NCBI RefSeq assembly: GCF_045037415.1
Contig: NZ_CP173438.1
Length of the DNA stretch: 64,000 nucleotides
Reading direction: 5' to 3' (one strand)
From: Escherichia coli
Lineage (GTDB): Bacteria > Pseudomonadota > Gammaproteobacteria > Enterobacterales > Enterobacteriaceae
Program-made: the position numbers and the translations under genes
The notes under the pieces: model-generated
What the model was told of the DNA's origin: nothing
Seen by the model: only the letters and a program-made list of their open reading frames with translations
Databases searched by the model: none
Part shown: positions 17,333 through 56,642 of the stretch, in pieces
Layout: the number at the start of each line of letters is the position of its first letter
Position numbering within the stretch: the stretch's first letter is position 1

Positions 17333-17665
17333 TTGAGCTTAACGCCAAATGCGCTCGACACCACGACGAGTAAATACCGATTCCTGAATGACGACTTCAT
17401 TCTCTGTTCCTTCATTCACTCTACCGCCTGGCGAGGAATATTCGCCTTCGGTGTTTTTCCGGACCACGTAAAAATCGATGTCGCCAGGCTGTTTCCCGCC
17501 AGTGGTCATTTAGTACAAGTGCTACCGGAATATTACCAGCCAGCGAATGTCTGGGCCGTTTATGTTTCAAAGCTGTCGACGTCAGCGAAAGTGCGGATAA
17601 CGGTAGAATTTTTACGCCAGTATTTTGCCGAGCACTACCCGAATTTTTCACTGGAGCATGCCTGA
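17333..17665 (+). pseudogene. 3'-terminal fragment of a LysR-family regulator gene (dmlR/yeaT-like remnant)
   Basis: 110-codon ORF whose C-terminal two-thirds ([60 protein letters not shown]) has the layout of a LysR effector-domain C-terminus; frame closed by TGA at 17324-17326; no N-terminal HTH domain; sits where K-12 has dmlR upstream of leuE. Confidence 0.4.
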
Positions 17666-21696: not shown

Positions 21697-22878
21697 TTAG
21701 CGAATTTCTTTGTCTCTCCCGGCGCAAAGTCCGAAAATCGCCATCAGTAGTGAAAGTATTGCAACACCCATCAGTGGTACGGACCAGTCACCGTTAGCAT
21801 CGTGTATTTTACCCATCAGCGGCGGCCCACAGGCTGCCAGCAAATACCCGACGGATTGTGCCATCCCCGAGAGTGCCGCCGCCTGATGCGCAGAACTTGC
21901 CCGAAGACCAATGAACGTCAACCCCAGTATCATTGTTGCGCCGGAACCAAAACCGAAAAGCAGAGTCCAGGTGATCGCGTGTGCTGGCATAAAGCAGAGC
22001 CCAACCGCGCCCACTGCGCACATCAAGGCAACGAACGCTGCAATACCACGCTGATCTTTCACATGATGTAAGAAAAGTGGGATCAGCAAACCGGGAGCTG
22101 CTGTGGCTAGTTGCAGCAAACCATGCAGTGAACCCGCCTGTGCTTCGCTATAGCCTTGACTGATGAGGATCGCCGGAAGCCAGCCAATAATCACGTAATA
22201 GACCAGTGAGTTGATCCCAAGAAACAATGTTACCTGCCAGGCAAGCGGCGAACGCCAGATACCCCGAGTATGTAAGGCGCGTGAGGTACTCAAATTTGCA
22301 TGTTGTTGACTTCGCCACTGTGGCAGCCATAAAAAAAGAGCCAGCAGAGGAAAACACATCAGCATGAGCAACGCGCCTTGCCAGCCAAAACCGTTCAAAG
22401 CCAGCGGCACTACCATCGCCGATCCCAGTGCCGCCGCAGCTCCCATTGTCAGGGAATATGCGCCGGTAAGTCTGGCGACGGAATGAGGGAAATCGCGTTT
22501 AATTAATCCTGGCAGTAAGACATTGCCTAATGCAATCCCACCGCCAATGACCGCTGTACCGCCAAATAATAAGTAAGGCGAAGGGAGAGAGCGAATTGCG
22601 ATACCTGCACAGATCAAAAGTAACGCGGCAAACAGGCTACGTTCCATACCAAAACGTCGCGCCACCGGGGCGGCCAGCGGTGAGATCAGCGCAAAGGCTA
22701 ATAATGGCAGGGTGGTCAATAAGCCGGTTTGCGCCGTCGTTAGCGAGTAAGCGGAACGAATCGTATCCAGTAACGGTGCTGCGCCGGTAAAGGTGACGCG
22801 TAATGTTGTGGCAATCATCAGAATGCCAGCGATAAGGAAAATCCTGTTTTTACCGCTTAATGAAGTTGAACAGGTCAT
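21697..22878 (-). CDS. yeaN: MFS transporter (2-nitroimidazole exporter NimT)
   Basis: 393-aa ORF MTCSTSLSGKNRIFLIAGILMIATTLRVTFTGAAPLLDTIRSAYSL...; 12-TM MFS architecture. Confidence 0.93.
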   Translation of the reverse strand: MTCSTSLSGKNRIFLIAGILMIATTLRVTFTGAAPLLDTIRSAYSLTTAQTGLLTTLPLLAFALISPLAAPVARRFGMERSLFAALLLICAGIAIRSLPSPYLLFGGTAVIGGGIALGNVLLPGLIKRDFPHSVARLTGAYSLTMGAAAALGSAMVVPLALNGFGWQGALLMLMCFPLLALFLWLPQWRSQQHANLSTSRALHTRGIWRSPLAWQVTLFLGINSLVYYVIIGWLPAILISQGYSEAQAGSLHGLLQLATAAPGLLIPLFLHHVKDQRGIAAFVALMCAVGAVGLCFMPAHAITWTLLFGFGSGATMILGLTFIGLRASSAHQAAALSGMAQSVGYLLAACGPPLMGKIHDANGDWSVPLMGVAILSLLMAIFGLCAGRDKEIR

Positions 22879-22974
22879 ATGCTTCTCATTGTTACAAACG
22901 AGGCTGTACCTTACCGTTTTTATTGTTATGTTGAATCAAGCTAAAATGACAAAATATCGCTAAATTCGGACAAA

Positions 22975-23796
22975 ATGATGCACAGGTTGAATCTCAATGG
23001 CTATGAACCCGACCGACACCATGAAGCCGCGGTCGCATTTTGTATTCACGCCGGAACGGATGAGTTAACCAGTCCTGTACATCAGCACCGCAAAGGGCAG
23101 TTGATACTGGCACTACATGGTGCAATTACCTGTACGGTAGAAAATGCTTTGTGGATGGTGCCGCCACAATATGCGGTTTGGATACCGGGCGGGGTGAAAC
23201 ATAGTAATCAAGTGACAGCTAACGCCGAACTCTGTTTTCTGTTTATCGAGCCCAGCGCAGTGACAATGCCGACAACATGTTGCACATTGAAAATATCGCC
23301 CTTATGCCGGGAATTAATTTTAACCCTGGCAAACAGGACGACGACTCAGCGTGCTGAGCCGATGACCCGCAGATTAATTCAGGTCCTGTTTGATGAACTC
23401 CCTCAGCAACCACAACAACAGCTGCACTTGCCCGGTTCTTCTCATCCTAAAATCCGCACGATGGTGGAGATGATGGCGAAAGAGCCCGTCGAGTGGGGCT
23501 CATTGAGGCAATGGGCTGGCTTTTTTGCGATGAGTGAACGCAATCTTGCCCGGCTGATAGTGAAAGAGACGGGGTTGAGTTTTCGCCAGTGGCGTCAGCA
23601 GTTACAGCTGATTATGGCGCTTCAGGGATTAGTGAAAGGCGATACTGTACAGAAAGTTGCTCATACACTGGGGTATGATTCAACAACGGCCTTTATTACT
23701 ATGTTTAAGAAAGGCCTGGGGCAAACGCCAGGCCGATATATTGCGGGATTAACTACTGTTTCCCCACAATCAGCGAAACCAGACCCGCGGCAATAA
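22975..23796 (+). CDS. yeaM: AraC-family transcriptional regulator (NimR)
   Basis: 273-aa [52 protein letters not shown]...; C-terminal AraC HTH; divergent from yeaN. Confidence 0.93.
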
Positions 23797-24199
23797 GCGG
23801 GCCAACCGGTACGCCGCGAAACAGCGCCACGCCTAAAACAGTGCCCACCAGCAGCCCGGCGACCAGTTGCGGCTGGCTGCCCATTAACGTCACGCCGCGC
23901 CCCCCCAGCCAGGAGACAATAACGCCGACTGCAATTGCCACCAGCGATTTCCAGTTCAGAAACGAGTGAATCAGGGTTGAGGGCGGTAGCGTCCCGCTGG
24001 CGATGGGGGCCATAACGCCAATCGTCAGAATGATTATCCCGATACTTAGCCCCTGTTTTTCAATCCACGGGAAAAAGGTGCTTAACGGTGTGACGCGGAC
24101 AATAATCAACACCAGAATTGAAACGGCGACAGTGGTGTTATGACTGATAAAGCCCAGCGCAGCTAACCCGAGCAGGATCAGCAAAGTGACATCAAACAT
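23753..24199 (-). CDS. yeaL: UPF0756 inner-membrane protein
   Basis: 148-aa [54 protein letters not shown]...; 3' end overlaps yeaM 3' end by 44 bp. Confidence 0.92.
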
Positions 24200-24300
24200 C
24201 GTGGTTTCCTTGCCAAAAAATAATAAGCCTGCTTACTTTACGCTTGCTGCAGGCAGGAAGTAGAAAATCTTTACGTTTTTTGCATAAAAAATCAGACGAA

Positions 24301-24318
24301 CTGTCATCAAACTGCCAT
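24301..24318 (+). promoter_or_regulatory. Pho box (PhoB binding site) upstream of yoaI: CTGTCAT-CAAA-CTGCCAT
   Basis: Two direct 7-bp repeats spaced 4 bp, matching the Pho-box consensus CTGTCAT-N4-CTGTCAT at 13/14 positions, about 50 bp upstream of the yoaI ATG. Confidence 0.5.
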
Positions 24319-24368
24319 TTGTGTACGTTAACAATAACGTGAAAACAGCTATCTCCCGGGGGCATACT

Positions 24369-24473
24369 ATGAACGATCAAATGTTCGTCGAGACACTGAT
24401 TATCACGTCATCGTTTTTTGCCATTGCTGCTGTGCTGGTTTTGTCCGTTCTGCTTATTGAACGGACAGGCTAG
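24369..24473 (+). CDS. yoaI: small membrane protein YoaI, 34 aa
   Basis: Not in ORF track. ATG 24369 to TAG 24471-24473 translates [34 protein letters not shown]; single predicted TM helix. Confidence 0.8.
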
Positions 24474-24977
24474 TTACGCAGTGCGGCGGAAATTGACCAG
24501 TTCTGGTTGCGCAATACGCAAATAATCCGCGGTTTTCAAAATAACGGATTTATCCAGCATGCCTGCATTGAAGGCGATTTCATCAAATCGTTCGAAGAGT
24601 AGGGGGTCGGCAACCAGTTTGAGTTTTGGATGGAAGCTGAAAGGGGGGATCGCGCCGAAGACACAGCCTGTGAGTTCATCGACTTCCGCCGGGCTGGCCA
24701 ACGAAGCGCGTAATCCGCCTATATGGCTGGCGAGTTGGCTCAGATCGGCCTGTTGATCGGCAGCGAGGATCGCCAGAACATGTTGATTTACGCCATTGCC
24801 TTTGACTTTACATACCAGTGCCTTAGCCCCCTGGCCTAAAGCGGTGCCACGAATTTCTGACACTGCTTCACATTTACCTACCGCTTCATGGGTAACGACG
24901 CGGAAGTTAGCACCTTCTTGTGATAATAAAGCGATTAACCGCTGATGCGTCACGCTTCCTTTAGCCATTTCAGTCAT
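24474..24977 (-). CDS. yeaK: YbaK-family mischarged aminoacyl-tRNA deacylase
   Basis: 167-aa ORF MTEMAKGSVTHQRLIALLSQEGANFRVVTHEAVGKCEAVSEIRGTALGQG...; its stop codon abuts the yoaI stop. Confidence 0.93.
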   Translation of the reverse strand: MTEMAKGSVTHQRLIALLSQEGANFRVVTHEAVGKCEAVSEIRGTALGQGAKALVCKVKGNGVNQHVLAILAADQQADLSQLASHIGGLRASLASPAEVDELTGCVFGAIPPFSFHPKLKLVADPLLFERFDEIAFNAGMLDKSVILKTADYLRIAQPELVNFRRTA

Positions 24978-25019: not shown

Positions 25020-26510
25020 TCATGAACGGCTGTTTTTGTTCTGCTTATTGACATATAAACGCTCATCGGAAGCTTTATACGCATCATGTAACGTATCGTT
25101 TTCTTTCATCGCGTAAATACCGGAAGAGAAGCCGATCTCTTTCTGCGGCGCGATATGTTGCAGACGTTTTTCGATACGTTCAGGCAGTTGTGCTGCAATT
25201 TGCGGCGTCGAATCGACAAGAATGATGCAGAATTCATCGCCACCGAGTCGGATGGCATAATCACTTTTACGAATCGACTGTTTAATCGCCTGAGCTAATA
25301 ACGTAATCGCTAAATCCCCCTCCTGATGACCGAGGGTGTCATTTATTTGCTTTAACTTGTCCATGTCAATAGCAATAAACATCACCGAAGAACCGGATTG
25401 CACCAGTTTCTGCAACCGCTGCTCCAGTTCAGGGGTTAAAATTTTGCGATTATAGAGTCCAGTCATCGCATCACTAATATTTTCTCGCGACACATTTTGG
25501 TATAAGCGGAAGTGCATCCGCACCATATTCAGCAAAATTAACGCCGTCAAAATCCAGAACAGAACGCTTTTCCACGAAGACGTGATAAAGTAAAGAATAT
25601 CAATGGATAACGAGACACGAATGCCGCCCGGTAAGTCATGGACGTAACTGACATACTGGAACAGATTATCTTCGCTCTGGTTGATGATAATGTCGCGCCC
25701 CGAATCTGTATCGGTTAGCGTGACATTGAGAAAACGCCAGAGGAGAGGGCGGTCATGAGTGTAAAAGATATTCCGCAGATTGTTTTTGTTAATATCCAGC
25801 AGCACAATCCCTTTTAGCTGCCCTGCGACATATACCGGCGTCAGCAAACTCATCACGTTCTGTTTAGTACGCTGATCCTGGTAAATGCTCGATAATACGG
25901 TACGCCCGGTAAATACTTTTTCAATATCTTTGCGATCGATACCAATACTTCCTGATTGCAGGAAGGACCAGTTATTCATCGCAAAGTATTCAACATTAAC
26001 CGGCTCATAAAAATAGACATAGCGGTCATTGAGATCGAGATAATAGTGAAATTTCTCTTCGGCCATCCCAAGACCTGAACCGTAATCATCCTGGTGGCGG
26101 TTGCCTTCCACTGCCTGATCAAAAGCGGGTAATAGTGCTGCAGCTTCCACAATTGTGTCGCAGTCAGTGGATGCGGTTTGTAGTGTGCCGCGTAAGCCCT
26201 GGTATTTATGAGCAGTCAGGTTTAAGCCATGGGTATTATTGGCAGACTCAAAAGCCTCGCAGATAGCGCGCCGTTGTTCTGGCGGTACTTCCGACTGCTC
26301 AGCAGCGAGAGCGCGCATCACATGCGCGGCAATACTCTGATTCTGATACTTATCATAAAGAAAGGAAGAGTCTGCTCTCTGCACGATATAGCGCAGATAG
26401 GCACTCATTGCTCTGTCGCTGGCGACAAGTTCAAAAATAAGGAAGGAAGATGTCAGCACAATGACACTTGCGGCGATAAAATGCCGGAGCATTCTATGGT
26501 GCAATTTCAT
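25020..26510 (-). CDS. dgcJ: membrane-bound diguanylate cyclase
   Basis: ORF 25020-26690; K-12-length product (496 aa) begins MKLHHRMLRHFIAASVIVLTSSFLIFELVAS...; intact AIRLGGDEFCIILVD GGDEF motif. Confidence 0.9.
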   Translation of the reverse strand: MKLHHRMLRHFIAASVIVLTSSFLIFELVASDRAMSAYLRYIVQRADSSFLYDKYQNQSIAAHVMRALAAEQSEVPPEQRRAICEAFESANNTHGLNLTAHKYQGLRGTLQTASTDCDTIVEAAALLPAFDQAVEGNRHQDDYGSGLGMAEEKFHYYLDLNDRYVYFYEPVNVEYFAMNNWSFLQSGSIGIDRKDIEKVFTGRTVLSSIYQDQRTKQNVMSLLTPVYVAGQLKGIVLLDINKNNLRNIFYTHDRPLLWRFLNVTLTDTDSGRDIIINQSEDNLFQYVSYVHDLPGGIRVSLSIDILYFITSSWKSVLFWILTALILLNMVRMHFRLYQNVSRENISDAMTGLYNRKILTPELEQRLQKLVQSGSSVMFIAIDMDKLKQINDTLGHQEGDLAITLLAQAIKQSIRKSDYAIRLGGDEFCIILVDSTPQIAAQLPERIEKRLQHIAPQKEIGFSSGIYAMKENDTLHDAYKASDERLYVNKQNKNSRS

Positions 26511-26690
26511 GATAAATGGCACTCCTTCGGTTAGTGAAACGAGAAAACCAGATAAAGTTCGATTGCGGCCTGGCACAGGGGCGCTAATTATACTCATCTC
26601 TGCGCCGCTGGGGAGGGGAAATTTAGGGGTAATAGTAATAAATTGTATGCAAAAGCCACGCAAAAAGCATGGCTGTGAATATTTTTGCAC

Positions 26691-55996: not shown

Positions 55997-56269
55997 GTGA
56001 GTCGAGCATTGATCGCCGTAGTATTAGCATTTCCATTAATTACACTGGCTAACCCGCATTATCATCCGGACGTGGAGGTAAACGTACCGCCAGAAGTGTT
56101 CAGTTCAGGCGGGCAGTCAGCGCAGCCCTGTACTCAGTGCTGCGTTTATCAGGATCAAAATTATTCTGAAGGGGCAGTAATTAAAGCCGAAGGAATACTG
56201 CTGCAATGCCAACGGGATGACAAAACCCTAAGCACTAATCCGCTGGTCTGGCGGCGCGTGAAGCCATAA
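55997..56269 (+). CDS. ynjH: DUF1496 family secreted protein
   Basis: 90-aa ORF, GTG start after AAGGAG; MSRALIAVVLAFPLITLANPHYHPDVEVNVPPEVFSSGG...; signal peptide. Confidence 0.88.
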   Translation: MSRALIAVVLAFPLITLANPHYHPDVEVNVPPEVFSSGGQSAQPCTQCCVYQDQNYSEGAVIKAEGILLQCQRDDKTLSTNPLVWRRVKP

Positions 56270-56642
56270 ACGCCTCTAATAATGGAATGTCAGCAGGGGC
56301 CAGCGGATATCGCAGCGCCTCTTCAGGTGAGCACCAGACCAGCGCCTGATGTTCATGTGCCTGTAACGTCCCGTGGAAGTCGGGTACGTGCCAGGCATGA
56401 AGATGGATAATCCGCCCCGAAACTTCTCGCTGATGGCTGGCAACATAGTCACCAACAGTTGCTTCGATGCCCAGTTCTTCGTTTAACTCACGCACCAGCG
56501 CCTGCCGCTGGCTTTCATCCGGCTCGATTTTACCACCGGCAAACTCCCATAATCCCGCCTGATCGCTCTGGGCAGGGCGTTGCGCGAGTAAAATTTTGCC
56601 ATCACGTTCGATGATGGCGGCAACAACTTCAATCATTTTCAT
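56235..56642 (-). CDS. nudG: Nudix CTP pyrophosphohydrolase
   Basis: 135-aa ORF MKMIEVVAAIIERDGKILLAQRPAQSDQAGLWEFAGGKIEPDESQRQALVRELNEELGIEA (Nudix box visible); 3' end overlaps ynjH by 35 bp. Confidence 0.94.
   Translation of the reverse strand: MKMIEVVAAIIERDGKILLAQRPAQSDQAGLWEFAGGKIEPDESQRQALVRELNEELGIEATVGDYVASHQREVSGRIIHLHAWHVPDFHGTLQAHEHQALVWCSPEEALRYPLAPADIPLLEAFMASRAARPAD

Follow-up and report, generated by a model that had tools for sequence, protein, structure and literature searches.

Two convergent gene pairs with shared 3' ends

The window analysed here, a 64,000-nucleotide stretch of Escherichia coli DNA (contig NZ_CP173438.1 of assembly GCF_045037415.1), contains two pairs of convergent genes whose coding sequences run into one another at their 3' ends. 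The first is formed by nimR (also called yeaM; 22975-23796, plus strand), encoding the 273-residue AraC-family repressor of nimT, and yeaL (23753-24199, minus strand), encoding a DUF441 inner-membrane protein of 148 residues; the two share 44 nt (23753-23796). The second comprises ynjH (55997-56269, plus strand), which encodes a DUF1496 protein of 90 residues, and nudG (56235-56642, minus strand), which encodes a Nudix CTP pyrophosphohydrolase of 135 residues, with 35 nt in common (56235-56269). In either pair both stop codons lie inside the overlap. A sequence-only reading of the window had reported 3' overlaps of 44 and 35 bp at these positions, and both values agree exactly with the ORF listing, the raw sequence and the RefSeq annotation. 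The RefSeq ends fall at the same coordinates in strain SK1144, to which the window is 100% identical over the stretches tested, and at equivalent positions in K-12 MG1655 (b1790/b1789 and b1760/b1759), to which it is ~97% identical. At its other end, E. coli nimR begins with Met-Met (22975-22980); its orthologues in Citrobacter and Salmonella carry a non-start codon at the first of these positions and start at the second Met, so that translation in E. coli may actually begin at the second ATG (22978).

The two overlaps are built alike, in that each reads the conserved C-terminus of one protein against the post-domain tail of its partner. In the first pair, NimR residues 260-273, a tail outside any domain (the helix-turn-helix match in Pfam ends at about residue 255 of 273), lie opposite YeaL residues 135-148, which form the final, conserved membrane segment of a protein whose DUF441 match extends to residue 145 of 148. 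In the second, the tail is contributed by NudG, whose Nudix domain ends at about residue 125 of 135, and the conserved C-terminus (NPLVWRRVKP) by YnjH, whose DUF1496 match extends to residue 89 of 90; the DUF441 and DUF1496 matches both run to the final position of the profile. The codon register is also shared, position 1 facing position 1 and position 2 facing position 3. In both pairs the overlap length modulo 3 is 2 which, provided that our mapping onto the published definitions holds, corresponds to phase 1 in the usual nomenclature, the phase reported as the commonest among convergent overlaps longer than 4 nt.

Could either overlap be an artefact of annotation or sequencing, produced by a spurious ORF, a frameshift or a wrongly assigned frame end? 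Many of the long convergent overlaps in databases are indeed artificial 3' extensions (Pallejà et al. 2008, PMC2478687), but both overlaps described here are shorter than 60 nt, the length beyond which such artefacts dominate. The stop codons are unambiguous, and the overlaps are therefore not annotation choices. All four proteins match Pfam profiles well above the curated cut-offs (HTH_18 and AraC_binding in NimR, DUF441 in YeaL, DUF1496 in YnjH and NUDIX in NudG), from which it follows that the four ORFs are real genes. Moreover, of 5,426 complete E. coli genomes, 5,170 match the 41-mer spanning the nimR/yeaL overlap exactly (226 have 1-2 mismatches), and the orthologous pairs overlap in other genera, as detailed below. 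An artefact, to which we would assign almost no probability, is thus effectively refuted.

Movement of the nimR stop codon across species

Species-representative genomes scanned with YeaL yielded 80 loci, 60 of which have nimR convergent on yeaL, and overlap lengths were established by walking codon by codon to the first in-frame stop. The yeaL stop proved to be fixed in all 60, and in 47 of them the two coding sequences share 6 nt or more. An overlap of 17 nt is found at 27 loci (Klebsiella, Enterobacter, Raoultella, Kluyvera, Leclercia, Lelliottia and others, including the lineage 'E. coli E69'), one of 44-45 nt at 14 loci (E. coli, the Citrobacter freundii group and Yokenella), one of 20-21 nt at four and one of 6 nt at two. 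The remainder consists of nine loci at 0 to -5 nt (S. enterica arizonae, C. werkmanii, Buttiauxella, Cedecea and one truncated remnant) and four at which a gap of 122-216 nt separates the genes. Apparent overlaps of 119-281 nt in Enterobacter, Kluyvera, Leclercia and others were rejected, as tblastn had aligned through in-frame stops and the true value there is 17 nt. The idea that an earlier stop might remove the overlap in relatives is thus borne out for nimR: such a stop is present, shortening the overlap to 17 nt in most genera, and the overlap is gone altogether in S. enterica arizonae, C. werkmanii, Buttiauxella and Cedecea. Within E. coli the situation is different, for the earlier-stop allele of nimR (C23767T) gave no match among the 5,426 genomes, and the 44-nt state is fixed in the species.

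The difference between the two main states comes down to one position. Codon 265 of nimR (23767-23769, plus strand) is CAA (Gln) in the window and a stop, nearly always TAA, at the 27 loci with 17 nt, and base 23767 is position 1 both of this codon and of yeaL codon 145. When YeaL residue 145 is Ile (ATN), the antisense reading gives a nimR stop and an overlap of 17 nt; when it is Val (GTG, as in E. coli), the antisense reading gives Gln instead, and nimR runs nine codons further to the TAA at 23794-23796. The rule is followed without exception, YeaL ending in LIVGKQ in every 44-nt species and having Ile at residue 145 in every 17-nt species.

What does the longer overlap cost either protein? 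The NimR tail of the 44-nt species differs at most positions, following the pattern S[TMA][RTK]P[DGV][LRP][PR][QL], whereas YeaL is invariant. Third-position entropy in yeaL codons 135-143 (0.79 bits) is at the level of the rest of the gene (0.82 bits), i.e. those codons reveal no additional synonymous constraint imposed by the NimR tail. Together, the variable tail and the gene-level entropy imply that the tail exerts no detectable constraint. In the last five codons of yeaL, third-position entropy is 0.38-0.69 with overlap versus 1.32 without it, a comparison that covers five codons only and is confounded by amino-acid differences; this low entropy could mean that some joint constraint operates at the very end of the gene.

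At 20 of the 80 loci (E. albertii, E. whittamii, Kosakonia, Phytobacter and others) yeaL is unchanged with no nimR adjoining it. A 48-residue nimR remnant lies next to yeaL in Escherichia sp. MOD1 (locus L005, 2473-2616), and nimR is truncated in C. koseri (locus L036). The distribution points to repeated gain or loss of the nimR(-nimT) drug-efflux module beside a stable yeaL.

Conservation of the ynjH/nudG overlap

NudG orthologues were traced to contigs of eight other genera, and in all nine genera sampled (9/9) both the gene order nudG-ynjH-gdhA and the nudG/ynjH overlap are kept. Its length is 41 nt in E. fergusonii, E. albertii, Salmonella, C. portucalensis and Superficieibacter, 35 nt in E. 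coli, C. freundii and Yokenella, and 26 nt in Phytobacter. Here it is the nudG stop that moves, the YnjH end (NPLVWRRVKP) and the ynjH stop being conserved. The middle base (56236) of the nudG stop TAG (56235-56237, minus strand) is the third position of ynjH Thr80 (ACT), so that a synonymous change to ACG, as seen in E. fergusonii, E. albertii, Salmonella and others, converts the nudG TAG to TCG, lengthens nudG by two codons and gives an overlap of 41 instead of 35 nt. The longer nudG allele (T56236G) had no match in the 5,426 E. coli genomes. The ynjH/nudG overlap is older and more stable than that of nimR/yeaL but obeys the same rule.

Convergent junctions in the window and chance expectation

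According to the strain annotation, the window has 11 convergent junctions between intact genes and one that involves a pseudogene. The gaps at the intact junctions are 3, 119, 58, 21, -44, 0, 50, 92, 76, -35 and 8 nt, i.e. two of the 11 overlap and a further four have gaps of 0-21 nt. These four are yoaE/pdeD (4084/4088, 3 nt), yoaF/yeaO (21273/21295, 21 nt), yoaI/yeaK (24473/24474, 0 nt) and ynjF/ynjE (57349/57358, 8 nt), none of which leaves room between the stops for a terminator. With four more junctions this tight in the same window, nimR/yeaL and ynjH/nudG are not special there; genome-wide, K-12 has 75 convergent overlapping pairs (Huvet & Stumpf 2014, PMC4161906). As for length, a converging reader was let into the 3' ends of the window's own genes in the observed phase and run to its first stop. 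The median run was 56 nt, with at least 35 nt in 66% of cases and at least 44 nt in 58%. The overlaps are therefore not in excess of chance, and their lengths are those to be expected by chance once a stop codon is lost. Two further features of the window may be mentioned alongside: adjacent pseudogene fragments at 17342-17665, between rnd and leuE, which derive from a tartrate dehydrogenase (minus strand) and a LysR-family regulator (plus strand), and the longest ORF of dgcJ, which spans 25020-26690 (GTG start, 556 residues) versus 25020-26510 (496 residues) in the annotation, the 60 additional codons representing an ordinary choice of start site.

A probable passive origin for the overlaps

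The explanation that we favour, and hold to be likely, is that these are ordinary tail-to-tail overlaps of the commonest phase, arising from passive placement of stop codons in tightly abutted convergent genes. The two genes of each pair abut without a spacer, and the stop of the domain-complete partner (nimR, nudG) would simply be the first in-frame stop antisense to the conserved C-terminal codons of its neighbour (yeaL, ynjH). Its position would follow passively from substitutions, conservative or synonymous, in that neighbour, Ile or Val at YeaL residue 145 in one case and ACT or ACG at ynjH Thr80 in the other, and the extra tail residues show no detectable selection. The mRNAs of each pair are then necessarily complementary at their 3' ends, as a consequence of the arrangement. 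Loss of a stop codon followed by 3' extension is the standard origin of convergent overlaps (Pallejà et al. 2008, PMC2478687; Huvet & Stumpf 2014, PMC4161906). The variability of the coding overlap argues against selection for the overlap as such; by way of counterpoint, an overlap between nudG and ynjH in all nine genera that keep the order is also what a selected arrangement would be expected to produce.

Convergent (tail-to-tail) overlapping gene pairs in prokaryotes were reportedly the subject of a study by Rogozin and co-workers in 2002. Both pairs are coding genes on opposite strands that share 3' nucleotides, and both are conserved in more than one species. Like the known pairs of this class, they consist of real genes, share less than 60 nt, have one stop that moves between species, and place codon position 2 opposite the degenerate position 3. 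Nothing essential sets them apart from that class; what is added here is the identity of the toggles, YeaL I145V and ynjH Thr80 ACT/ACG.

A candidate yeaL terminator inside nimR

Beyond the overlap proper, on the minus strand and 19 nt downstream of the yeaL stop, lies a hairpin, GGCCUGG-N8-CCAGGCC (23713-23734), that probably forms the stem-loop of an intrinsic terminator for yeaL. Read in the yeaL sense from 23734 down to 23703, the element runs GGCCUGG-CGUUUGCC-CCAGGCC and continues directly into a U-rich tail, UUUCUUAAAC (23703-23712), which is the complement of Phe-Lys-Lys codons of nimR. The stem comprises 7 bp, six of them G-C, the loop 8 nt, and the folding energy is -14.1 kcal/mol. 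The hairpin occupies nimR codons 247-253 (G-L-G-Q-T-P-G), within the conserved helix-turn-helix motif of the AraC family. It is the only clean stem-loop past any of the four stops, and a search just past the stops of nimR, nudG and ynjH returned no convincing intrinsic terminator. Thus, a G+C-rich stem-loop followed at once by a U-run shortly past a stop codon, as befits an intrinsic terminator, is found at 23713-23734. By energy alone the hairpin surpasses shuffled sequences only moderately (z = -1.7, 10 of 200 shuffles being as good), and the region does not contain more terminator-like sites than its shuffles do. A scan of 22800-24600 also returned a JUMPstart match from Rfam at 23964-23993 (plus strand, antisense within yeaL), which was dismissed as noise (21.5 bits against a gathering threshold of 35, E = 0.096).

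The argument for the hairpin comes from its synonymous sites. Among 22 sequences of Escherichia, Citrobacter and Salmonella, the four synonymous sites at which pairing of the stem demands a given base (Gly247, Leu248, Pro252 and Gly253) have an entropy of 0.20 bits, versus 1.54 bits in the loop and 1.32 bits gene-wide. These stem codons are four of only six that are near-invariant among the 93 four- and six-fold degenerate codons with an invariant residue (permutation p = 2e-5; Mann-Whitney p = 6e-4, the entropy test taking no account of phylogeny). At the 37 other-genus loci used for comparison the same sites vary freely (1.51 bits). Codon preference does not account for this constraint, because elsewhere in nimR the Gly and Leu codons are free to vary, and CCA is not the codon favoured for Pro. 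Compensatory changes were not found in the stem, i.e. the conservation comes without covariation, as the stem is nearly invariant. In this clade, conservation of the hairpin exceeds what protein coding needs, and the element with its U-run is probably the intrinsic terminator of yeaL, which the E. coli-Citrobacter-Salmonella clade would have either gained or kept. Published Term-seq supplements that were searched contain no mapped yeaL 3' end and do not mention the gene.

Is there another way to account for a conserved hairpin at this place? Its arms are perfectly self-complementary, which means that it forms in both transcripts, and the constraint is specific to a clade that holds all the species with a 44-nt overlap. 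The element might accordingly act in nimR mRNA, on stability or by pausing translation near the 3' end, or as a DNA palindrome bound by a protein. These alternatives appear improbable to us, given that the U-run directly past the stem is present on the yeaL-sense strand only (UUUCUU in E. coli, UUUUUU in Citrobacter and Salmonella), that a distance of 19 nt from the yeaL stop is the usual position for a terminator, and that in nimR mRNA the hairpin sits in a translated region where ribosomes would unwind the stem.

As a putative yeaL terminator, the element resembles other intrinsic terminators located within a neighbouring coding sequence in its G+C-rich 7-bp stem, 8-nt loop and U-rich tail, in its place 19 nt past the stop, and in the purifying selection on the synonymous sites of the stem. 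It differs from them in that its U-run is interrupted (UUUCUU) and that it is unidirectional, with no counterpart for nimR. The element is encoded wholly by conserved residues of the AraC-family helix-turn-helix, so that constraint on the protein supplies part of it at no extra cost. A terminator inside the nimR coding sequence would also mean that 3' complementarity extends over roughly the last 90-95 nt of nimR mRNA. In E. albertii (locus L010, ~2160-2185), which lacks nimR, yeaL has its stop in the loop of a different hairpin, GGAAACAG-UAGA-CUGUUUUC, followed by a T-run, so that yeaL seems to use an alternative terminator in that lineage.

Overlapping transcripts and the question of coupling

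The excludon concept comes from Listeria. Classic excludons combine long antisense UTRs with functionally opposed genes, and they are defined by mutually exclusive expression or RNase III processing; the likeness of the present pairs to them lies in published transcript overlap, and no such functional link is known for either pair. That the mRNAs of each pair are mutually antisense at their 3' ends, as the sequence-only reading had it, follows from geometry and agrees with published RNA-seq; the further suggestion of that reading, that the overlap may couple expression of the pairs, is conjectural. ExcludonFinder, applied to 58 RNA-seq data sets of MG1655, identified 165 convergent excludons, defined by transcript overlap in at least 50% of the 58 samples, and yeaL-nimR and nudG-ynjH both appear among the convergent excludons of Table 1 (Sanmartin et al. 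2025, PMC12288877). The pairs ynjE-ynjF, yeaK-yoaI, yeaO-yoaF and pdeD-yoaE are listed as well (PMC12288877), and the excludons listed for the window are, on comparison, exactly its six tight or overlapping junctions. Since four junctions with gaps of 0-21 nt are listed as excludons too, overlap between transcripts is not defined by an overlap of coding sequences. The nudG/ynjH pair also serves GWIPS-viz as an example of strand-specific Ribo-seq on overlapping genes.

Does this make the overlaps selected regulatory devices, in which the members of a pair are reciprocally controlled, yeaL against nimR (and so nimT) and nudG against ynjH, each lowering its partner through collision of RNA polymerases or through cutting of the 3' duplex by RNase III? 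Several observations are in keeping with such a role. Like convergent excludons in general, the pairs are adjacent opposite-strand genes with overlapping transcripts, and both belong to the MG1655 excludome. A terminator embedded in the transcription unit of the neighbour is considered the strongest evidence for an excludon (PMC12288877), and the candidate yeaL terminator inside nimR would render transcript overlap obligatory whenever both genes are on. Adjacency and overlap of nudG and ynjH are conserved in nine genera, and excludon pairs as a class have been published to show higher synteny. We nevertheless consider selection for reciprocal control unlikely. The coding overlap is labile in length, the tail of NimR shows no constraint, and yeaL is unchanged in the 20 of 80 species that have no nimR there. 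NimR is a single-target regulator (nimR/nimT), and no functional link between the partners of either pair is known. Coding overlap adds nothing specific either, because the four neighbouring junctions without it are listed too, and p19 capture of double-stranded RNA, by which excludons could be validated, could not do so for convergent ones (PMC12288877). We argue instead that the coding overlap itself is incidental, because its length varies by genus, the tail of NimR is free, and yeaL does without nimR at a quarter of the loci.

A more specific version would combine the two lines of evidence, with the hairpin as a working yeaL terminator of Escherichia-Citrobacter-Salmonella origin and transcription of yeaL lowering NimR and thereby de-repressing nimT. 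We regard this combination as very unlikely. On this view the same 35 nt would encode an AraC helix-turn-helix motif, an RNA stem and a U-run together. The yeaL transcript would extend over the last ~95 nt of nimR mRNA, NimR would go down, and the 2-nitroimidazole exporter nimT would be de-repressed, which would amount to a genuine regulatory excludon tying a DUF441 membrane protein to drug efflux.

Significance

Both overlaps are already known, having been part of the K-12 annotation for decades and of the E. coli catalogue of 2025 (PMC12288877). Their value lies in illustrating clearly how such overlaps form and change in length, the stop codon of one gene being toggled by a conservative or synonymous substitution in the other. 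The coding overlap would accordingly be a by-product of zero spacing and not a sign of coupling. The embedded terminator that we infer for yeaL makes a small addition, in that it would represent a constraint on synonymous sites put on a gene by the transcription signal of its neighbour.
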